Source: a virus. Taken from it: 64,000 nt of DNA. The translations under genes and the position numbers were made by a program. The notes under the pieces are model-generated. The model worked only from the letters and a program-made list of their open reading frames with translations. It was not told the DNA's origin and did no database searches. Below, piece after piece: positions 3,323 to 55,612 of the stretch. Within the stretch, counting starts at the first letter, position 1. Every line of letters starts with the position of its first letter. The stretch lies in the UHGV virus genome UHGV-0171787. One strand, given 5' to 3'.

Positions 3323-4384
3323 ATGGCTAGTCCAACTTTATTTGTATCGTATGACCAGAATGGTAAAAAACTTTCTTTTGCTAACTGGATTTCTGTTCTG
3401 TCCCCTCAGGATACCCCGTTCGTATCTATGACCGGTAAAGAGTCTATCAACCAGACTATCTTTAGCTGGCAGACCGATGCACTGGCAAGCGTTGACGGTA
3501 ATAACGCACACGTCGAAGGCTCTCGTGCTGAAGACGGCGAAATGAAACCGACTGTTATCAAATCTAACGTTACTCAGATTCTGCGTAAGGTTGTTCGTGT
3601 TTCTGATACTGCTAACACCACCGCTAACTACGGTCGTGGTCGTGAACTGATGTATCAGCTGGAGAAGAAAGGTAAAGAGATCAAGCGTGACCTCGAGAAA
3701 ATCCTTCTGTCCGGTCAGGCTCGTACCGACGTTCTGGCTGACCAGTACCTGACTAACTCTGCAACTGATCCTGCTGTTGTTGGTCTGAATGACACCCATA
3801 CAGCTCGTAAGACTGGTGCATTCCAGTTCCTGTGTGCTCACGGTGGTCTGGCTGGTGGTGTTGTTGACAAGACCAAGAATGGTCCTGCTGACCCGGATAC
3901 TGGTGCAATCACTGTTAAAGTTGCACAGAATGCTTCTAACCCGACCACTAACATTGGTTTCGACGAAGCTGATATCTTTGATATGACTCTGCAACTGTAT
4001 ACCGCTGGTTCTGAAGCAGATATCATCATGATTAACCCGGCTCATGCTAAGATCTTCGCTGGTCTGCAAGAAAATACTCAGGGTTCACGTAAGCGTATCT
4101 TTGAGAACACCAAGCAGTTCATCTACGAAGTTAACAGCATCACTGACCCGCTGGGCCAGAGCTACAAAATCATCGTTAACCGTTGGATGCCTACCGATGC
4201 AGTTTACTTCTTCCGTAGCGCTGACTGGACTCAGATGGTTCTGCGTGCTCCGAAACGTACTGAACTGGCTAAAGATGGTTCTTATGAGAAATGGATGATT
4301 GAAATGGAAGTTGGTCTGCGTCACCGCAACCCGTATGCTTCCGGCGTTCTGTTCACTGCTGCGGGAAAGGTAGCGGCGGCGTAA
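3323..4384 (+). CDS. major capsid protein (zero-frame product)
   Basis: 353-aa ORF after the scaffold gene with a good RBS context (aggagctaatataacATG); canonical capsid position. Confidence 0.75.
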   Translation: MASPTLFVSYDQNGKKLSFANWISVLSPQDTPFVSMTGKESINQTIFSWQTDALASVDGNNAHVEGSRAEDGEMKPTVIKSNVTQILRKVVRVSDTANTTANYGRGRELMYQLEKKGKEIKRDLEKILLSGQARTDVLADQYLTNSATDPAVVGLNDTHTARKTGAFQFLCAHGGLAGGVVDKTKNGPADPDTGAITVKVAQNASNPTTNIGFDEADIFDMTLQLYTAGSEADIIMINPAHAKIFAGLQENTQGSRKRIFENTKQFIYEVNSITDPLGQSYKIIVNRWMPTDAVYFFRSADWTQMVLRAPKRTELAKDGSYEKWMIEMEVGLRHRNPYASGVLFTAAGKVAAA

Positions 4385-5487
4385 CAGTAGATTCCGTAAC
4401 TGTTAGTCCTTCGTCGGTTGCAAGCCTTCCGACGGGGGCTACTCAGCAGTTTACAGCTACAGCAGAAATGAGTGACGGCTCCACAAGCACAACTGGATTT
4501 AATTGGTCCGTTGAAGGCGGTGGGGCTATTTCTGTTTCTGGGCTATACACTGCACCGAGTGCGTCGCAAGAAACCCCAGCAATTATTACGGCAACGAAGT
4601 CATCCAAGAAAGGGACGGCTACTGTTAATTCTATCTACGAACCAGCGACTATTGTATCAAAAGGTCCTATTACTGGTAAGATTGGTGGCAGCACTACAGC
4701 ATTCACCACAATGTTTACAGCAACCAACTCAGCATTCTCTGATTATGAGTTTGAAATCACTCCTCCGTCAGCAGGTTCTTTTAACCTGTCGGGTGTATTT
4801 GGTTTAGATGACAATGCATCTGGAACAGTGACTGTAAAAGCAACGCATAAAACTCAAACCTCAGTTACTGCAACAGGGACAATCAGTGGTGTAATTCCTA
4901 AAGCTACTATCACAGGTAAGTCTCTTACCGGTAAGGTTGGTGGTGATGTGATTCCTTTTACTGACATGTTTACTAGTAACAAACCAGCATCGGAATTTAC
5001 TTACGCACTGACTCCTGATGGTGAAGTTGGTTCAATCAACACTACTACTGGTGCACTGACTTTAGCACTGGCTCCTACAGATGAACTTATGAGTGTTAAA
5101 GCAACCCATAAAACACAAACTTCTGTAACAGCTACTGCTACAATTACAGCAACACCGAAGTTGACAGGTCTTGTCCTTTCTTCTGTGACTAACACCACGG
5201 TTACTGGAAGCCCTGCGGTTCCGGCTGAATCTGATACAATTACTATCACTGATTCAGGTGTTGCAGGTGTTGCTCGTGTAGATGGGGTTCCTCAAGGAGC
5301 TTTAACTGGAGCTTTGGCCTATGATGTAGAAGGTACAGATTCTTCATTGATGACAGTGGATTTAACCAGCAATGTGTTAACTATCACCCTGTCAGCACCG
5401 ATTACCAGTGAAGATACAAAAATTACCATCCGAACTAATCCGGGTTCTGATGTTTTCCGTACTTATATTGTTAAATCTGGTGCATAA
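3323..5487 (+). CDS. capsid / Ig-like (Big_2-type) fusion protein made by -1 frameshift at 4363-4369
   Basis: The -1 frame reads ...GKGSGGVTVDSVTVSPSSVASLPTGATQQFTATAEMSDG... straight across the capsid stop. The Ig-domain sequence begins before the ATG at 4468, so the listed ORF 4468..5487 is a truncated view of this extension. Confidence 0.55.
4363..4369 (+). other. candidate -1 programmed ribosomal frameshift site (G GGA AAG)
   Basis: X XXY YYZ heptamer in the capsid frame, five codons before the capsid stop. The -1 frame is open from 4303 and encodes Big_2-like Ig domains through 5487. Inverted repeats follow at about 4382-4404 and 4414-4436. Confidence 0.6.
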
Positions 5488-5493
5488 GAATAA

Positions 5494-5524
5494 AGCCGCC
5501 TTCGGGTGGCTTTTCTTGTTTTAA
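5494..5524 (+). terminator. rho-independent terminator after the capsid/Ig gene
   Basis: AGCCGCC-UUCG-GGUGGCU hairpin followed by a T-run. Confidence 0.6.
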
Positions 5525-5586
5525 GACCTATACAAGTCAGTGTGTAATGTATATTCTTTGTCTACATATAACAAGGAGGACAACCT

Positions 5587-6339
5587 ATGGCAATGCCAGA
5601 TGTGGCCTATCCGATTAACACGTATGGCTGGCTTAAGAAAGCTGTTGCCTTGTGGGCCGATCGGGACGATGATGAATTTGTCAATCAAATTCCAAACTTT
5701 ATTAACTTTGCAGAGAAAGAGATCTATCGTAACTTACGTATTCCTCCTCTGGAAAAAGAAGTGTATTTAGATATCAAAGATGGAGTGGCTTATATTCCTC
5801 CTGATTACTTAGAAGCTCAATGGATGATGAGAGCCAAAGATGGTGCAATCTTCCAAGTAACATCTCCTGAAGAGATTAGCTATCGTAGACAGCATGGAAC
5901 AATTAATCCATCTCACTGGAATAACCAACCTGTTAACTTTGCTCGTTTCGGGAGTCGTTTCATTTTCTACCCTAGTATTGAAGCAGATACTCCATACTAC
6001 CCTGATGATGGAAGCCCTTTGATTCCAGCAGAAAACTCAGTAATTCTTAGTTATTATGCAGATCCACCGGAATTCCACGAAGATACAGATACCAGCGCTA
6101 TTCTTACTATAGCACCAGAACTTCTTCTGTATTTTACCCTACGTCATGCTTGTCTGTTTGTTCAAGATGATAACGGTGTTCAGAAATGGTCAGCATTAGG
6201 AAAAGCTATCCTTGATGAAATGGTAGAGCAGAACAAGAAACAAGAGTACTCAGGTTCACCTATCGCAATTCCGAATAACATGACTCGACTTCAGAGCAGC
6301 TTGCCTGATATTTATGGTATTCGCACTTCACGTGTATAA
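5587..6339 (+). CDS. virion structural protein (function unassigned)
   Basis: 250-aa ORF with an RBS (aaggagga) immediately downstream of the capsid module. Confidence 0.5.
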   Translation: MAMPDVAYPINTYGWLKKAVALWADRDDDEFVNQIPNFINFAEKEIYRNLRIPPLEKEVYLDIKDGVAYIPPDYLEAQWMMRAKDGAIFQVTSPEEISYRRQHGTINPSHWNNQPVNFARFGSRFIFYPSIEADTPYYPDDGSPLIPAENSVILSYYADPPEFHEDTDTSAILTIAPELLLYFTLRHACLFVQDDNGVQKWSALGKAILDEMVEQNKKQEYSGSPIAIPNNMTRLQSSLPDIYGIRTSRV

Positions 6340-6348
6340 GGAGAAAAC

Positions 6349-9081
6349 ATGATTAGTTACAACAATTCAGCACCTAAAGCGGTAAATAATGTAGGGCAAT
6401 TCGGTGCTACAGAAGGGTCCATTGGTGCATATAAATCAGCAGCTGAGTATGCGTCTGATGCTAAATACTGGGCACTTCTATCCCAAACTAAATACTCTTC
6501 AGTAGAGGATATTCTGGCTGAAGTAGAACGCCTGTATGCTCAAGGTTATCTACTGGAAGAAGATATTAAACAGCTTAAGAGTGACTTTGAGTCACAAGAG
6601 CAAGTGCTCTTAGGCTTGATTCAATCCACAGGAACTGCAATTGACAACACTAATGCAGCAACTGAACTTTCAAAAGAGGCAACTCAAAATGTTCTAGCAC
6701 AACTTGACATTATCTCTAATATGACAGTTCAAACAACGCTACTCCCTCCCGGAAGTTTAGCAACTGGATCTTATGACAACTTAACTGGAGAGTTTTCTTT
6801 TGGTATTCCAGAAGGTAAACCGGGCCGTGATGGGACAGATGGTACGATTTCTGATATCGGCAGTGTTCCTATTGGTACCCCTGTTACTGATGACTTCGGT
6901 TTCTATGTAGATCAGGATGATGGTGGTTTATACCGAGCCAATATGTCTGATATTGCCAACCTAGTGCCTTCTATCCGATCTATCTCTATCAACGGCGGTG
7001 CAGAGCAGACGGGTACTGTATCTTTTAACTCTGTATCTAGTTTTAACACTCGTACCGGAGATGTTGTATCACAAACTGGTGATTATGAAGTAAGTCAAAT
7101 CACAGGGGCGGCTGCTAGTGGTGATAATTCAGATATTACATCCCTTTCTGGCCTTACTACAGCAATATCTGTTTCACAGGGTGGTACAGGGGCTACATCT
7201 GCTGAGAATGCTCGAGTAAATCTTGGACTCGGTTCAGTGTCTGTGGAAAATGTAACCCCTTTAACTAAAGGAGGTACAGGAGCTACTACACCTTCTGGTG
7301 CACGTAGTAATCTTGGCTTAGGTTTAGTTTCAACTGAATCTATCGTGCCAATCACTAAAGGTGGTACAGGGGCTACATCTGCTGAGAATGCTCGATTGGC
7401 ATTGGTTGCAGCTAAAAGCGGTGCTAACTCAGATATTACATCAATGACAAATAGCGTCACTTTTACCCAGCCAATATCTATTGCCGATGGGGTAAGTGCT
7501 ACAAACGCTGTGAACCTCGGTCAAATTTCCTCAAATCAAGGGGCTTCTTTAATTGGTGTTAAGCAACCCTTTACAAACACAGTAGCTCGGACACAATACG
7601 ACAAGAATGCGGAGATGATATCCATTCGTGACTTCCATCAGAGCACTGACCCTGACTGGACGCTTGCGTTTAATCGTGCGTCAACAGTATCTGCACAGCA
7701 GGGGAAAATTATATTCGTACCTGCCGGTGAGTACAAAATATCAGATTCTATCCTTCTCTATGATTCGGAAGATGTTTACAACGAGAAATATTATCAGCCA
7801 CCAGGGAGCCGATTTGTCGGGGAGGGCCGCGCATCTATTATTCGCAAGACAGCGGTAGGGACTCAGGACATTAACGCTGTTTTCTACAACAAAGGTAAGC
7901 GCGGTAATGTTGTCCGTGGACTGCGCATTCTGGATGAGACAACGGATAGTTACGGGTATTACACACCCAATACAGCTGTATACCAGGAATTTAGCGATCT
8001 GTTTATCCTGGCACAAAAATGGGGAATGTATTTTGGAGGTAATACCTTTGTTGGTGTTTCCCTCCGCGAAATCGTTGTCCAAGGTTCAAACGCTACGGGT
8101 ATATATGGTGGTATTCATATCCATGGCGGGACGAGCTACGTAGTATCTCAATGTAATGTGTTTAAAGCGAACTACTGTTCCTTTGAGTTGACTGGCTCAT
8201 ACTGCGAAGTGGGACCATTAGCATCTGATGATTGCACTGGGACTCCGTATATTTTTAACGCAGGCTCGTACAGCGTTTCATCTTTAGGCTGTGAGCAGCC
8301 TTCGCGCCAGAACAGTGGAACAATTATTAAGGGAACCGGGGCTAACTTGCAGATAGACAATATACATCTGTATGACCAAACGCAGATTGCCGGTAGCTAC
8401 ATGTTTGACCTATCCGGCTATGCGAAAGTAAGTATTAAGCAACTAATCACCAGCTCAACCACTACTTTCAATGGTGCGATGGCCCGTTTAAACAACGGTG
8501 CTAAGTTAGAAATCGTGTACAGCAATAAGGTTGAAACGTCGTGGCCTCAAAGGAATTCTTATGACACAACAACAACAACTTTCGCTACGTTAGGAAGTCT
8601 TGGTGGTGTGGCAACCATCCCGACATTCGGAACTACTATGTGCCGAGATATAGCTCTACCAAATCCGAACCAGGAGAATGGTCCCTACTATCGTATTGTT
8701 GGTGGTCAATATGGAACTCGTGGTTGTATTGGAACTATATTCACTCTACGTAGTGGTACTGGTATGACTCCTATCGCAGGTGCTTATAATCTTAACACAG
8801 TAAGCAGTAACACTGCTACGAACGCAAAATTAGTTAAAGCTGCTCATTGCGACACTGAAGCCCTCAAAGACTATGATAAATGGTTCACTGGTACGTACGA
8901 AGGGACGTCTTATCTATTTATCCGTATGCCTATTGAAGGCGGGGATCGCAACCTCGGGACATTCTTCTCTGGTGTTGTTTTTGGACAAGATCGAAATATG
9001 TTCAAAACCTTGTTAGGGAGTGAGATCTCCGGACTAACTGAATATTCGTCGGGTAGTATTCTTACCGCGCAGGCAACTTAA
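6349..9081 (+). CDS. tail fiber / tailspike protein with fiber-repeat region
   Basis: 910 aa with three tandem copies of a (T/S)(K/Q)GGTGATSAENAR.NLGLG-type fiber motif; the C-terminal part looks like a beta-helix-type domain by composition only. Confidence 0.55.
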   Translation: MISYNNSAPKAVNNVGQFGATEGSIGAYKSAAEYASDAKYWALLSQTKYSSVEDILAEVERLYAQGYLLEEDIKQLKSDFESQEQVLLGLIQSTGTAIDNTNAATELSKEATQNVLAQLDIISNMTVQTTLLPPGSLATGSYDNLTGEFSFGIPEGKPGRDGTDGTISDIGSVPIGTPVTDDFGFYVDQDDGGLYRANMSDIANLVPSIRSISINGGAEQTGTVSFNSVSSFNTRTGDVVSQTGDYEVSQITGAAASGDNSDITSLSGLTTAISVSQGGTGATSAENARVNLGLGSVSVENVTPLTKGGTGATTPSGARSNLGLGLVSTESIVPITKGGTGATSAENARLALVAAKSGANSDITSMTNSVTFTQPISIADGVSATNAVNLGQISSNQGASLIGVKQPFTNTVARTQYDKNAEMISIRDFHQSTDPDWTLAFNRASTVSAQQGKIIFVPAGEYKISDSILLYDSEDVYNEKYYQPPGSRFVGEGRASIIRKTAVGTQDINAVFYNKGKRGNVVRGLRILDETTDSYGYYTPNTAVYQEFSDLFILAQKWGMYFGGNTFVGVSLREIVVQGSNATGIYGGIHIHGGTSYVVSQCNVFKANYCSFELTGSYCEVGPLASDDCTGTPYIFNAGSYSVSSLGCEQPSRQNSGTIIKGTGANLQIDNIHLYDQTQIAGSYMFDLSGYAKVSIKQLITSSTTTFNGAMARLNNGAKLEIVYSNKVETSWPQRNSYDTTTTTFATLGSLGGVATIPTFGTTMCRDIALPNPNQENGPYYRIVGGQYGTRGCIGTIFTLRSGTGMTPIAGAYNLNTVSSNTATNAKLVKAAHCDTEALKDYDKWFTGTYEGTSYLFIRMPIEGGDRNLGTFFSGVVFGQDRNMFKTLLGSEISGLTEYSSGSILTAQAT
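7180..7395 (+). repeat. 36-bp perfect direct repeat (two copies) inside the tail fiber gene
   Basis: ggtggtacaggggctacatctgctgagaatgctcga occurs at 7180-7215 and 7360-7395, encoding the repeated fiber motif. Confidence 0.8.
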
Positions 9082-9085
9082 AAAT

Positions 9086-9110
9086 AAGGCCCTGTTTGGG
9101 GCCTTTTAGC
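9086..9110 (+). terminator. rho-independent terminator after the tail fiber gene
   Basis: GGCCC-UGUUU-GGGGCC hairpin plus T-run. Confidence 0.55.
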
Positions 9111-9176
9111 AGTATCACACTGCGATAAGTAATGAATATACTATACTTAAGAGGTTAAATAATAGGAGGATGATAG

Positions 9177-9395
9177 ATGAAAATAATGAAACAAGTTACA
9201 TACGGATTAGCGTGTCTAAGCACCGGGTTTGTGATTTCAACCGCACTTCCAGTAACAGCAGGACACTCTCTGATTACTACCTCTGCACCAGCAGAGAAGC
9301 TTAGCTCTCATTGTAAGCAACGTACTATACAAAATAACCTCGTTGTTATCTGCCCTGATGCTGAATCTAACGCCCTGAGAAAGATGCTACCTTAA
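9177..9395 (+). CDS. small exported or membrane protein upstream of the endolysin (holin candidate, weak)
   Basis: 72 aa with an N-terminal hydrophobic segment and RBS aggagga; adjacent to the lysozyme gene. Confidence 0.35.
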   Translation: MKIMKQVTYGLACLSTGFVISTALPVTAGHSLITTSAPAEKLSSHCKQRTIQNNLVVICPDAESNALRKMLP

Positions 9396-9422
9396 TAAAG
9401 GGACTACAAAAGGAGGTTAGAA

Positions 9423-9914
9423 ATGGATAACGTCGCATTGCCACCTGTACATTTAAACTTAAGCCCAGCTGGAATGGAATTCATCATGAAGCATGAGGGT
9501 ATGAGAACTAAGGCTTATAAGGATTCCGCAGGTATCTGGACGATATGTGTAGGGGCTACGCGCGATATGAATGGTTATCCGGTTAGGCAAGGATTAACAT
9601 ATTCTATAGAGGATTGTCTAGCTCTGCTAGATAGAGACACACAAGACTCTGTTCGTGCTACTCAGAAAAACATAAAGGTTCCTTTGCTTGTTCATGAGTT
9701 CGATGCACTCACCTCTTTCAACTTCAATGTTGGCAGTGGGGCTTTGAGCACATCTAAGCTGAGGAAGGTTATCAATGGAGAAGTCAAAGGTGATATTTAT
9801 TCCGAATTTCTTCGTTGGGATAAAATCACGGTTAAAGGAGAGAAACGGAGAAGTCCGGGTCTTCATAACAGAAGGGTTGCAGAAGCTGATCTTTATACAG
9901 AAGCTAAATATTAA
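9423..9914 (+). CDS. endolysin, GH24 lysozyme (T4 e / lambda R / P22 gp19 type)
   Basis: Motifs EG.R.KAYKDS.GIWTI.VG, then FDALTSFNFNVG, then RR..E.DLY match GH24 muramidases. Confidence 0.8.
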   Translation: MDNVALPPVHLNLSPAGMEFIMKHEGMRTKAYKDSAGIWTICVGATRDMNGYPVRQGLTYSIEDCLALLDRDTQDSVRATQKNIKVPLLVHEFDALTSFNFNVGSGALSTSKLRKVINGEVKGDIYSEFLRWDKITVKGEKRRSPGLHNRRVAEADLYTEAKY

Positions 9915-9926
9915 TGGAGGTGCCTC

Positions 9927-10730
9927 TTGGCTATTGAAACTAATGCGGTAGTAGTTACCGACTTAAACCCTCTCTATCCTCGTGATAGAGATTATATCTA
10001 TGAAGGTGCAGCCCAGCTGCGCCTAGTTAAACAGGTATTACAGAACACGTTCCCTAATTTGACAGAACCTATGACTGTTAATTCTGATACGCTAGCCGCT
10101 ATCTCTGATAAGATTTCTTTTGCTGGAGATTATATGGACGTTGGTGGTCTAATGATTAAGAATGGTACAGCAGGTACTGGAAATAATGATTTTACAACCA
10201 AAGCTCAAATGGAAGCTTTTATGCTTAACTGGATGCAAAACAAGATTTACAGGGTTGGGTCTTATTATATCACTGAGGAAGATATCAATCCGGGAGATTC
10301 TACATCTCTAGGGTTTGGTATCTGGACAGCTGTTACTGGTGTTATTATGGGTGCCGGGGTTGTGAATCCTGATGGGACAGTCCCTAATGCTCAGCGTGTG
10401 GAGTTTACTGCTGGTGCTACTGGTGGTCGTGTCTACAACACGATTAAGACGGAGAATCTGCCATTGACCACAATCTCTGGTTCTAGTTTCTCTCTTTCTA
10501 ATTATACACACACCCATACAACAACGTTTGGACGAGGTGATGCCAGTGGTCACAACAGCTCTCCTAACTGGTACAGTCCGGGAAGCGGTTATTCTGCTGT
10601 AACAAGCTCTGATACCCACACCCACTCTATTACGGGCGAAGCAACATTTGGTTATGATGACGTATCTCGTCAACCCATAAATACGTTACCACCTTTCCGT
10701 GCAGCATATATTTGGAGACGTATCAGCTAA
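9927..10730 (+). CDS. putative tail fiber / receptor-binding-like protein
   Basis: 267 aa, G/T/S-rich with HTHTTTF and DTHTHSITG His-x-His motifs. Confidence 0.4.
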   Translation: MAIETNAVVVTDLNPLYPRDRDYIYEGAAQLRLVKQVLQNTFPNLTEPMTVNSDTLAAISDKISFAGDYMDVGGLMIKNGTAGTGNNDFTTKAQMEAFMLNWMQNKIYRVGSYYITEEDINPGDSTSLGFGIWTAVTGVIMGAGVVNPDGTVPNAQRVEFTAGATGGRVYNTIKTENLPLTTISGSSFSLSNYTHTHTTTFGRGDASGHNSSPNWYSPGSGYSAVTSSDTHTHSITGEATFGYDDVSRQPINTLPPFRAAYIWRRIS

Positions 10731-16563: not shown

Positions 16564-17616
16564 ATGTCTTTATTTGGAAAATCAGCTTCTAGCAAAACCA
16601 CAGTGGCCCCTTCCTCTCAGGTTGATGCCCTGCTGAAGCAGATTGTTGCTAATGCTCAGAAGATGCAGAACAACGATCAGGGATTCATCTCCCAACAGCT
16701 GGCTGGGTTTAATAACAATCAACAAGGTGCTCTGAACAACTTATCAGCTTCTACAACTCAGAAGCAACTGGCTGACATGTACACACCTCGTACACAGCAA
16801 GGGCTGGACCAACTTAACTCTCTTGCTCAACAGTATCAGAATATTGTCAATGGTGGTGGAGTGACAGCCGAGGGGGTTAATAACTTTAGTAAAGGGTTAA
16901 ATAATTCTGCTCTTGCTCAAGCAACTAGTAAAGCAGCTTCTAATGTATCTCTCGGAAATGGTTCTGACTCAGGTTCTCTCCGTAGAGCTGCTGCTCAGGG
17001 TGCTGCTCTGAACGGTGCTAATACAAACTTAGCTCGTACTATCAGTGGTAAGAATATGGGAATCAGTGCCCTGCAACAAGACCAGAACTTCCAGAGAGGT
17101 TTGCTTGGTGCTCAGTCTGGTCTAGCTGGACAGAATCTCAATCTTGGTGCTCAAGGTGTTCAGGCAACTCAACAAGCTATTCAGAATCAACTTATGGCTG
17201 GCAATCTACAACAGCAACAGGCTCAAGCACAAGCTGATATCAATTGGCAGAACGCTATTGGTTCTCAGCAGTACGGATGGAATCAGCTTAACAACCAACT
17301 TAATGTATTAAATAGTGTAAGCCCAATGGCTGGATATACAATTAAGAATGCCGCTCCGGGCGTTAACGTAGGACAACAGCTCCTAGGTGCTGGTATCACT
17401 GGTTTAGGTATTGCGGGTCGTATGGGTGCTTTCTCTCCTAACCAACAGACTCAGAATGCTTGGAGTTCATATAACAACTCGGGTGGGCAATCTGGAATGG
17501 CTGGTCCTATGATTGGAGGTTCTAATCTTTCTCAACAGAGGGGTCAGTCTAACTGGTTATCCACGGCAGGGAGTAATATCTTAGGTGGGGTCTTGGGGGC
17601 ATTTGGAGCAAACTAA
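16564..17616 (+). CDS. Q/N/G-rich low-complexity virion (internal) protein, paralog 1
   Basis: 350 aa starting MSLFG...SKTT, sharing GFNNNQ..ALNNL and a Gly-rich C-terminus with the next ORF. Confidence 0.45.
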   Translation: MSLFGKSASSKTTVAPSSQVDALLKQIVANAQKMQNNDQGFISQQLAGFNNNQQGALNNLSASTTQKQLADMYTPRTQQGLDQLNSLAQQYQNIVNGGGVTAEGVNNFSKGLNNSALAQATSKAASNVSLGNGSDSGSLRRAAAQGAALNGANTNLARTISGKNMGISALQQDQNFQRGLLGAQSGLAGQNLNLGAQGVQATQQAIQNQLMAGNLQQQQAQAQADINWQNAIGSQQYGWNQLNNQLNVLNSVSPMAGYTIKNAAPGVNVGQQLLGAGITGLGIAGRMGAFSPNQQTQNAWSSYNNSGGQSGMAGPMIGGSNLSQQRGQSNWLSTAGSNILGGVLGAFGAN

Positions 17617-17628
17617 AGGAGAATATCT

Positions 17629-18597
17629 ATGTCACTTTTTGGTGGAGGCGGAAGTAAAACTACTTCCCAAATGATTCGCCCTGAATACATTCAACAGTAT
17701 ATTGACCAGCTTAATAAGCAGATTGGTAATACTAGTTCAGGGGATTATGTTTATCGAGATAATGTAGGGTTTAATAACAATCAGACAGAGGCACTTAATA
17801 ACCTAGCACAATCTGGCGCTTTAGGCACTCTCTCACAGCAATATATGGATGCAGCAGGTCAAGGCTTGGGTTATCTAGATAATGCCTATAAAGGCTATCA
17901 GAGCCTCTCTGGACAAGGTGGGATTACTGGAGAACAAATTGGTGCTCTCGCTGGTCAACTGTATGATGATGATGCTGTGCAAGCAGCTATTACAGCTAAT
18001 AACGAGCAGGTTCAACAGAACTTGGCACGTAATGCTCTTCCTCAATTAGCTCAACAGTATGCTGGTCAGCAAGGCTCAGGTGCTCGTATGGCTAAATCTT
18101 TTGCCCAAGGTGATGCTCTGAATCAGATGCAAGGGCAAGCAACAGATATTACCAACAGTGCCTATAACTCTGCTATCAACCAAGCTGAAAGCATTCTCTC
18201 TGGTAATAGACAGAATCAGGCAGCTGCTCTCTCTGGTCTTTCTACTATTGGTTCTAACCTTTCTAACCTAGGTCAGCAGGGTGCTAATTTGTCTCAACAG
18301 CAAATAATGAATCAATGGAATGCAGGGTTGCAGCAACAACAGCAACAACAGAATGAATATGATAATGCCTACCAGAACGCTCAGAACGCAGCTAATTGGG
18401 GATGGCAAGATATCAACAACCAACTCGGTGCAGCAGGTGTACTTAACGGTGCTCTCGGACAAACTACAACTACTAAAACATCTGGTGGTAGTGGTGGCTT
18501 CTTAGGTGGGGCCATGAGCGGTGCAGCAGCAGGCTCTGCGTTTGGGCCTTGGGGTGCATTAGCTGGGGGTGTAATCGGTGGGTTGGCTAGTACTTAA
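17629..18597 (+). CDS. Q/N/G-rich low-complexity virion (internal) protein, paralog 2
   Basis: 322 aa starting MSLFGGGGSKTT; same motif set as 16564..17616. Confidence 0.45.
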   Translation: MSLFGGGGSKTTSQMIRPEYIQQYIDQLNKQIGNTSSGDYVYRDNVGFNNNQTEALNNLAQSGALGTLSQQYMDAAGQGLGYLDNAYKGYQSLSGQGGITGEQIGALAGQLYDDDAVQAAITANNEQVQQNLARNALPQLAQQYAGQQGSGARMAKSFAQGDALNQMQGQATDITNSAYNSAINQAESILSGNRQNQAAALSGLSTIGSNLSNLGQQGANLSQQQIMNQWNAGLQQQQQQQNEYDNAYQNAQNAANWGWQDINNQLGAAGVLNGALGQTTTTKTSGGSGGFLGGAMSGAAAGSAFGPWGALAGGVIGGLAST

Positions 18598-32872: not shown

Positions 32873-32904
32873 ATTTGTTACCTAAGAAATTTAATTTAGT
32901 TTAT

Positions 32905-32938
32905 ATAAAAGAAAAGGCCACCCGATTGGGTAGCCTCA
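32905..32938 (-). terminator. rho-independent terminator
   Basis: Minus strand GGCUACCC-AAUC-GGGUGGCC followed by UUUUCUUUU; same hairpin family as 55585..55612. Confidence 0.55.
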
Positions 32939-55530: not shown

Positions 55531-55584
55531 TTTTAGCTTCCTCTTGTTAGTTTAAGTAAGAGTTGTCCCTTAATTAAAACAACA

Positions 55585-55612
55585 AAGGCCACCCGATTGG
55601 GCAGCCTTTTTA
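55585..55612 (-). terminator. rho-independent terminator
   Basis: Minus strand AAAGGCUGCCC-AAUC-GGGUGGCCUUU followed by a U-rich tract; related to the hairpin at 32905..32938. Confidence 0.5.

Follow-up and report, generated by a model that had tools for sequence, protein, structure and literature searches.

Why are two 36-nt segments of one viral gene identical to the last base, and what does their identity say about how the gene evolves? The question is raised by virus genome UHGV-0171787, of which 64,000 nt on one strand (the window) were analysed, and by its tail fibre gene at 6349..9081 on the plus strand. A sequence-only reading had described two perfect 36-bp copies within 7180-7395, 180 bp apart, and had proposed that they could promote in-frame expansion or contraction of the repeat, altering fibre length or host range. 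We found that the two copies are the cores of units 1 and 3 of a 30-residue shaft repeat. They probably became identical through recent, lineage-specific copying within the gene, in an array that gains and loses units and acts as a crossover zone.

The repeat pair and the three-unit array

The direct-repeat search found the 36-mer GGTGGTACAGGGGCTACATCTGCTGAGAATGCTCGA at 7180-7215 and at 7360-7395, 100% identical and 180 nt apart from start to start, as the sequence-only reading had described. The bases flanking the copies differ on both sides, so the identity is exactly 36 nt long. The pair is the sole exact direct repeat of at least 24 nt in the 64-kb window, and the chance expectation for exact 36-mer pairs in 64 kb of the same composition is about 1e-12. 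The assignment to a tail fibre gene also held (PDB 7z47_D, E 4e-92), the gene lying directly downstream of an SU10-type adaptor gene. Both copies are in frame and encode GGTGATSAENAR, at aa 278-289 and 338-349. The pair is exact, but the earlier description missed a diverged middle unit: between the two, and in register with them, lies a copy at 7270-7305 that shares 64% (23/36) of its nucleotides with units 1 and 3, and the three copies together form an array with a period of 90 nt (30 aa). Outside their cores, the units have diverged too far for Tandem Repeats Finder to report the array; the only match of this program was one of 22 nt with a 9-nt period and a score of 30. The features of the array, all on the plus strand, are as follows.

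7108..7142, plus strand: bracketing motif, first copy, AASGDNSDITS; 80% identical to 7408-7442 at a spacing of 300 nt (repeat family D3)
7180..7449, plus strand: three-unit array, each unit with a 12-aa core and an 18-aa tail; units start at aa 278, 308 and 338
7180..7215, plus strand: unit 1 core, GGTGATSAENAR; exact copy of the unit 3 core
7270..7305, plus strand: unit 2 core, GGTGATTPSGAR; 23/36 nt identical to units 1 and 3
7360..7395, plus strand: unit 3 core, GGTGATSAENAR, followed by LALVAAKSGANSDITS; last unit, conserved family-wide
7408..7442, plus strand: bracketing motif, second copy, AAKSGANSDITS; start of the conserved connector to the receptor-binding domain

The 12-residue core has the pattern GGTGxxxxxxAR. 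In the 18-residue tail that follows it, units 1 and 2 have xNLGLGxVSxExxxPxxK and unit 3 has LALVAAKSGANSDITSMT. Behind the two identical cores, the tails are unrelated (VNLGLGSVSVENVTPLTK vs LALVAAKSGANSDITSMT), and the sequences 5' of these cores also differ. A motif of the form AA(S/K)SG(D/A)NSDITS stands on both sides of the array. In relatives with four units, the segment NSDITSLxxLTTALSVxQ-GGTG recurs, giving a super-unit of about 100 aa. An antisense open reading frame (7095-7460, 121 aa), on which no homology search was made, overlaps the array; it was treated as a by-product of the repeat composition because the conserved amino-acid pattern is that of the plus-strand frame.

The array is a conserved structural repeat of the fibre shaft, located just upstream of the connector where relatives carry different receptor-binding domains. 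The window fibre has a GGTGA-type shaft repeat, that is, at least two in-register GGTGxxxxxxAR cores followed by xNLGLG or LALVAAKSG tails. Such units were found in all 36 Kuravirus-type fibres recovered from the protein database and in isolates WFI101126, Ptacy1479 and 1-6bf. The sequence GGTG[SA]TSAENARLALVAAKSG was present at the unit 3 position in most of the 36 relatives, and the unit motif was also detected in 15 PHROG families, most of which bear the annotation tail fibre or tail protein. Weak matches to the unit were obtained in Pectobacterium phage PhiM1 gp47 (PDB 8vbx) and in the R1/R2 pyocin fibres. The paper on the PhiM1 fibre gp47 structure gives no detail on the repeat region, and literature searches on the peptide motifs NSDITSL and QGGTGA and on the XT phages discussed below found nothing relevant. 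An AlphaFold2 (AF2) monomer model, built from an alignment of 49 sequences, had a mean predicted local distance difference test score (pLDDT) of 52.7, with values of 40-65 in the array. The model places, at low confidence, one short helix in each unit core that reaches a few residues into the tail (285-291, 315-321 and 345-356), which hints at one helix per unit.

Probable recent copying within the gene

To compare core identity, the DNA of 11 related fibre genes was used. In these relatives, identity between the unit 1 and unit 3 cores ranges from 15 to 29 of 36 nt and never reaches 36. The 36-mer of the window matches the orthologous unit 3 at 34/36 nt in L003 and L005 and at 33/36 nt in L011 and L012, and the orthologous unit 1 of relatives at just 24-32/36 nt. 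The last units of L006 and L009 encode the identical peptide with five and six synonymous differences from the window, respectively, which excludes selection at the nucleotide level as the cause of the identity. For a fixed peptide and the codon usage of the phage, the probability that 12 of 12 codons are identical is 2.6e-6. The low similarity of units 1 and 3 in relatives, together with the five to six synonymous differences, therefore argues for recent copying and not for conservation. The perfect identity itself is probably a product of this copying within the gene, a point that the sequence-only reading had not seen.

The 36-nt identity ends abruptly on both sides, and homogenised pairs of units occur in other lineages as well. 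Units 1 and 2 of L006 share 32/36 nt, units 3 and 4 of L009 share an exact run of 27 nt, and phages XT73 and XT32 carry perfect 90-nt copies. Concerted evolution within the array is therefore recurrent.

The relatives' DNA was taken from contigs encoding related proteins and from GenBank phages, since direct searches had yielded none: a scan of viral-contig and metagenome-contig collections with the 36-mer (two positions degenerate) gave zero matches, and a related-locus search of viral contigs with aa 1-404 gave 19 pattern stretches, none of which was confirmed. A second protein-homologue search (aa 1-400) returned 22 mostly distant matches and missed the close relatives, its candidates probably having been swamped by common repeat words.

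In the mechanism that we propose, gene conversion or template switching between misaligned units would copy a patch of 36 nt, homogenising the non-adjacent units 1 and 3 and leaving the unit tails diverged. This array, prone to misalignment, also gains and loses whole units of 90 nt and serves as a crossover zone where the downstream receptor-binding module is swapped. In this gene, the exact pair is now the best substrate for an in-frame deletion of 180 nt, giving a protein of 850 aa with one unit, or for the reciprocal duplication, giving one of 970 aa with five units. Set against an L011-like unit 1 and an L003-like unit 3, positions 18-30 of unit 1 may have been changed to the unit 3 type and positions 12-13 of unit 3 to the unit 1 type, which suggests that the exchange may have been short or two-directional.

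Gain and loss of units in relatives

The number of units per fibre varied among the 36 relatives: two units in eight, three in 17, four in nine and five in two. Some relatives have longer cassettes of 63-66 aa between GGTGA cores. L002 shows three differences from the window over 7049-7190, yet has exactly one 90-nt unit fewer; L007 is also exactly one 90-nt unit short.

Phages XT73, XT32 and XT18 come from the same host strain and the same source type (chicken-farm sewage), and the flanks of their fibre genes are 99.8-99.9% identical. XT73 has five units and XT32 seven; XT18 has five together with a frame-breaking partial unit of 31 nt. Among these copies, three or five are 90-nt repeats without a single difference. 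P0109, an independent genome, has a fibre with just two units that shares, over its full length, 90-93% of its amino acids with the XT fibres. The distinctive AINTTIAR unit is present in several copies or not at all, a contrast that repeat collapse could not have produced. The array thus does expand and contract in relatives.

In-frame expansion and contraction, as proposed in the sequence-only reading, was thus seen in relatives, with two to five units among the 36 fibres and two, five and seven units within one allele family, but no length variant of the window's own allele was found. That reading had named the lack of length polymorphism across isolates as the outcome that would speak against it, and the comparison of relatives shows such polymorphism at the level of the array. 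Contraction through this exact pair fared less well: it would remove 180 nt (two units) and leave an array of one unit, which was found in 0 of the 36 relatives. The junction that such a deletion would form, SQ-GGTG...AR-LALVAAKSG, resembles natural last-unit junctions, for example that of Ptacy1479. An effect on host range is doubtful, the receptor-binding domain being the C-terminal tailspike module (aa 402-910) and the repeats lying upstream in the shaft; host specificity resides in this C-terminal domain and not in the shaft.

Three deposited genomes had irregular fibre genes. The fibre gene of XT18 (L014, OR757434.1) is annotated as two overlapping coding sequences, the partial unit at 3496-3556 shifting the frame; the 31-nt element may be a k-mer-sized artefact of assembly or else a genuine product of slippage. 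In myPSH2311 (L017), frame 0 of the fibre stops at codon 374 and the gene is unannotated, and in 1-6af (L018) it stops at codon 182 and the gene is annotated as two coding sequences. The stops in L017 and L018 are probably frameshift errors or genuine disruptions. The fibre gene may be mis-assembled or split in short-read genomes, and this should be borne in mind when such genomes are used.

The array as a recombination zone

The closest relative of the window gene changes from segment to segment: L006 over 6484-6843, L002 over 6979-7203, and L003 and L012 over 7339-7473. The stretch 7204-7338 has no close relative, with at most 34-37/45 nt shared per segment. The N-terminal half of the gene is a mosaic. 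In 32 of the 36 relatives, N-terminal similarity ends at aa 344-429, either at the last GGTG core, past the NSDITS motif, or past the GQISSxQGAxLIG connector, and unrelated receptor-binding domains follow. The repeat and the connector are therefore the junction for the exchange of receptor-binding domains. This locates where Kuravirus fibres exchange these domains, the one found here being common to P22-like prophage tailspikes, and the array plus connector (aa 278 to about 400) offers natural splice points for the annotation and engineering of Kuravirus fibres.

Points against recent copying and alternative explanations

Several observations weigh against an account in which recent copying made the two cores identical and the array changes in length. 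Unit 1 of L011 is already 32/36 identical to that of the window, so conversion may have covered as little as about 13 nt. Its direction may also have been mixed, positions 12-13 of the window 36-mer looking unit-1-like and positions 18-30 unit-3-like. The codon after the unit 1 core (7216-7218) is GTA (Val) vs ACC or ACT (Thr) in all three- and four-unit relatives with an orthologous unit, and this three-base difference at the boundary of the patch is unexplained by simple conversion from unit 3. A length of 36 nt is near the lower limit for efficient homologous recombination, so recombination between the copies may be infrequent. For the XT phages, the unit counts rest on deposited short-read assemblies, where the number of perfect tandem repeats can be wrong; the 31-nt partial unit of XT18 is suspicious and looks like an artefact. 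No length variant of the window allele was seen, the identical 910-aa protein being encoded on all four contigs (50-200 kb) that carry it, and the one-unit array expected from deletion between the exact pair is missing from all 36 relatives. The AF2 model, at its pLDDT of 40-65 in the array, is too poor to establish a fold.

Among the alternatives, the one that survives best holds that 180 nt were recently duplicated in tandem, or that two fibre alleles crossed over unequally at the GGTGA core, and that the 36-mer pair is what remains of this event and marks a mosaic junction. The position of the array between L002-like upstream and L003/L012-like downstream segments fits this explanation, as does the stretch between the copies (7204-7338) that has no close relative, and perfect tandem duplications of the unit do occur in XT73 and XT32. 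However, a recent duplication should have left the tails alike, whereas VNLGLGSVSVENVTPLTK and LALVAAKSGANSDITSMT are unrelated and the sequences before the cores differ, and a simple homologous crossover within a common motif would yield a single copy instead of a pair. We therefore regard this origin of the pair as unlikely.

An extension of the copying account is that the array is a selected length-tuning cassette: recurrent homogenisation would keep the units recombinogenic, and populations would produce shafts of two to at least seven units and swap receptor-binding domains at the array. The reach of the fibre would then be adapted to the thickness of the O-antigen or capsule, and the 36-mer pair of the window would be a snapshot of the process. 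We consider this extension quite unlikely.

It is very improbable that selection or codon bias acting on an ancient repeat produced the identity without recent exchange of DNA. Across the family, GGTG[SA]TSAENAR shows strong conservation in unit 3, and the codons used are among the commoner ones. Even so, the codon probability given above (2.6e-6) is too small for this explanation, orthologues with the identical peptide differ at 5-6/36 nt, and unit 1 of the relatives mostly encodes another peptide, such as ATTPEASR. A nucleotide-level function as an RNA or DNA site is not suggested either because orthologous cores vary freely at synonymous sites.

A dedicated variation system, namely a diversity-generating retroelement, a site-specific recombinase switch or a simple-sequence contingency locus, is hardly credible as the source of the repeat, although a host-recognition gene is a typical location for one. 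The copies are exact, without the adenine-specific mismatches of a diversity-generating retroelement, and both lie mid-gene in the shaft and not in a C-terminal ligand-binding fold. They are direct and not inverted, and the unit is 90 nt in frame and not a tract of 1-7 nt. No reverse transcriptase or invertase was found among the neighbouring genes (capsid, adaptor, holin, lysozyme, short fibre and nozzle), the other 50 kb of the window not being scanned for them. The three candidates were accordingly rejected: a retroelement target on the 100% identical mid-gene copies and the lack of a neighbouring reverse transcriptase; a Gin/Cin/Min-type invertase switch on the direct orientation and the lack of alternative C-terminal cassettes downstream; and a contingency locus on the length of the in-frame unit, the Tandem Repeats Finder match covering just 22 nt. 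With lengths of 14-20 nt and 80-86% complementarity, the inverted repeats in 5000-10000 are short and imperfect and could be due to chance.

The sequence comes from a MEGAHIT-style contig of a metagenome-assembled genome (k119_152547), but an assembly artefact is scarcely to be believed, 36 nt being far below the read length and the final k-mer, the reading frame being intact with a unit architecture that matches 36 relatives, and the identical protein recurring on four contigs of 50-200 kb. Recent copying between units within the gene is thus the explanation that we retain.

The fibre gene and its genome context

The gene that holds the array and the gene upstream of it, both on the plus strand, are made up as follows.

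5587..6339, plus strand: adaptor gene, dock for the N-terminus of the fibre; PF24175 SU10_adaptor on the 250-aa product
6349..9081, plus strand: long tail fibre / tailspike fusion gene, 910 aa; SU10 gp12 homologue with a tailspike-type C-terminal half
6349..7062, plus strand: N-terminal virion-attachment and coiled-coil part, aa 1-238; kept among Kuravirus fibres
7552..9078, plus strand: receptor-binding tailspike module, aa 402-910; common to P22-like E. coli prophage tailspikes

A phmmer search against PDB aligned residues 1-238 with residues 1-234 of 7z47_D, the SU10 long-tail-fibre proximal protein gp12 (E 4.3e-92). PHROG 10305 ('tail fiber protein') matched aa 1-227 (E 4e-81) and phrog_21710 matched aa 389-910. 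Gene positions 9-666 are 84.8% identical in nucleotides to ES17 and myPSH2311, and nr holds the identical protein as 'MAG TPA: tail protein'. In the C-terminal half, BLASTP showed 86% identity between aa 402-909 and residues 132-639 of 640-aa P22-like E. coli prophage tailspikes (P0010), and nucleotide homology to the prophages extends over about 7648-9006 of the window at 81-84%. The Sf6 tailspike 2vbe gave a weak match (E 5.7e-7). In the window protein, the Kuravirus fibre N-terminus and shaft stand in place of the first 131 residues of the prophage tailspike. The head-binding domain PF09008 was not found in the window protein: the alignment starts at prophage residue 132, and Pfam gave no match. 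The hmmscan of the 910-aa protein against Pfam-A returned zero families at E up to 1, Phage_fiber_2 (PF03406) included, and the repeat therefore has no curated Pfam placement. The protein is thus a chimera of a Kuravirus fibre N-terminus and a P22-like tailspike receptor-binding half.

The gene order is PF17236 SU10_MCP, PF24175 SU10_adaptor, the fibre, an ORF of 72 aa that is annotated as a holin in relatives, lysozyme, Gp10_C short fibre and Big_2 nozzle. The first 25 kb are 91.9% identical in nucleotides to Kuravirus ES17 over 87% of their length. No separate distal fibre gene (gp13-like) was found between the fibre gene and the genes that follow it, the 72-aa ORF and lysozyme. ES17 is alike in this, its proximal protein ('tail fibers protein') likewise carrying the receptor-binding domain by fusion. 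The window belongs to a Kuravirus-like (Gordonclarkvirinae) E. coli podophage.

A hypothetical protein from Salmonella phage SKML-39, which is T4-like, shares 37% identity with the module at 7552-9078, so one receptor-binding module is common to a lytic Kuravirus, temperate podophages and a myovirus. GenBank record MZ417522.1 ('Mycolicibacterium phage J1', 24,953 bp) matches the fibre gene (6349-7014) with the identity and bit score of ES17, and it looks mis-attributed or contaminated. Two further repeat pairs were noted in the window. Copies of AAAGGCCACCCGATTGGG(T/C)AGCCT at 32904-32936 and 55575-55607 are 85% identical and contain a GC-rich hairpin; they may be shared terminators. A 42-nt direct repeat lies at 16705-16746 and 17767-17808, 76% identical and 1062 nt apart.

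Comparison with known systems

SU10 gp12 carries NSDITSLSGLTTxxSxSQ-GGTGA...ARxNLGLG units at its residues 456-543, is homologous over the N-terminal 238 aa of the window fibre and occupies the same position after the adaptor gene. It differs in having two units and a separate distal gp13 (PMC9509320), whereas the window has three units and a fibre fused to a P22-like tailspike domain. In the SU10 structure, residues 1-90 of gp12 bind the adaptor and only these residues were built, so that the repeat region has no solved structure (PMC9509320).

A weak match (E 0.01-0.03) links the R-pyocin fibre (PMC6116203) to the window: its LPLARGGVGSNTAAGARSTIGAG pairs with unit 2 and extends over one unit only. 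The HxH iron site of the pyocin fibre is not present in the window fibre. Judging from the chain indices, and provided that the crystallised fragment begins near residue 323-328, the match would lie in the C-terminal part of the Shaft, immediately ahead of the C-terminal binding domain. The R-pyocin Shaft is made of helix-plus-turn repeats, and duplication of the motif is said to let the length of the fibre be adjusted (PMC6116203).

The XT73, XT32 and XT18 fibres (OR757436, OR757435 and OR757434, respectively) contain the orthologous array, with the first unit at aa 278, a period of 30 aa and a last unit that reads GGTGA...ARLALVAAKSGANSDITS. Their three or five identical whole units point to recent tandem amplification, whereas the window shows a 36-nt core patch shared by non-adjacent units with diverged tails.

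The phenomenon is a familiar one: a repeated shaft motif in a mosaic fibre gene, with gene conversion and change in unit number, is ordinary, already established in general for phage fibres, and calls for no new mechanism. The locus adds a small example of concerted evolution and unit-number change in a fibre-shaft repeat. Tetart et al. are said to have described, in 1996, short repeated motifs in the His-box region of T4 gp37 that are duplicated in T-even adhesins, and motif-mediated shuffling of tail-fibre genes was reportedly described by Sandmeier in 1994 and by Haggard-Ljungquist et al. in 1992. These fibre genes resemble that of the window in that short, conserved, repeated coding motifs serve for unequal or homologous recombination, which leads to in-frame duplications and module exchange. 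In T4, however, the duplicated segment reportedly lies in the receptor-binding tip and changes host range directly, whereas here it lies in the shaft, upstream of the receptor-binding domain.

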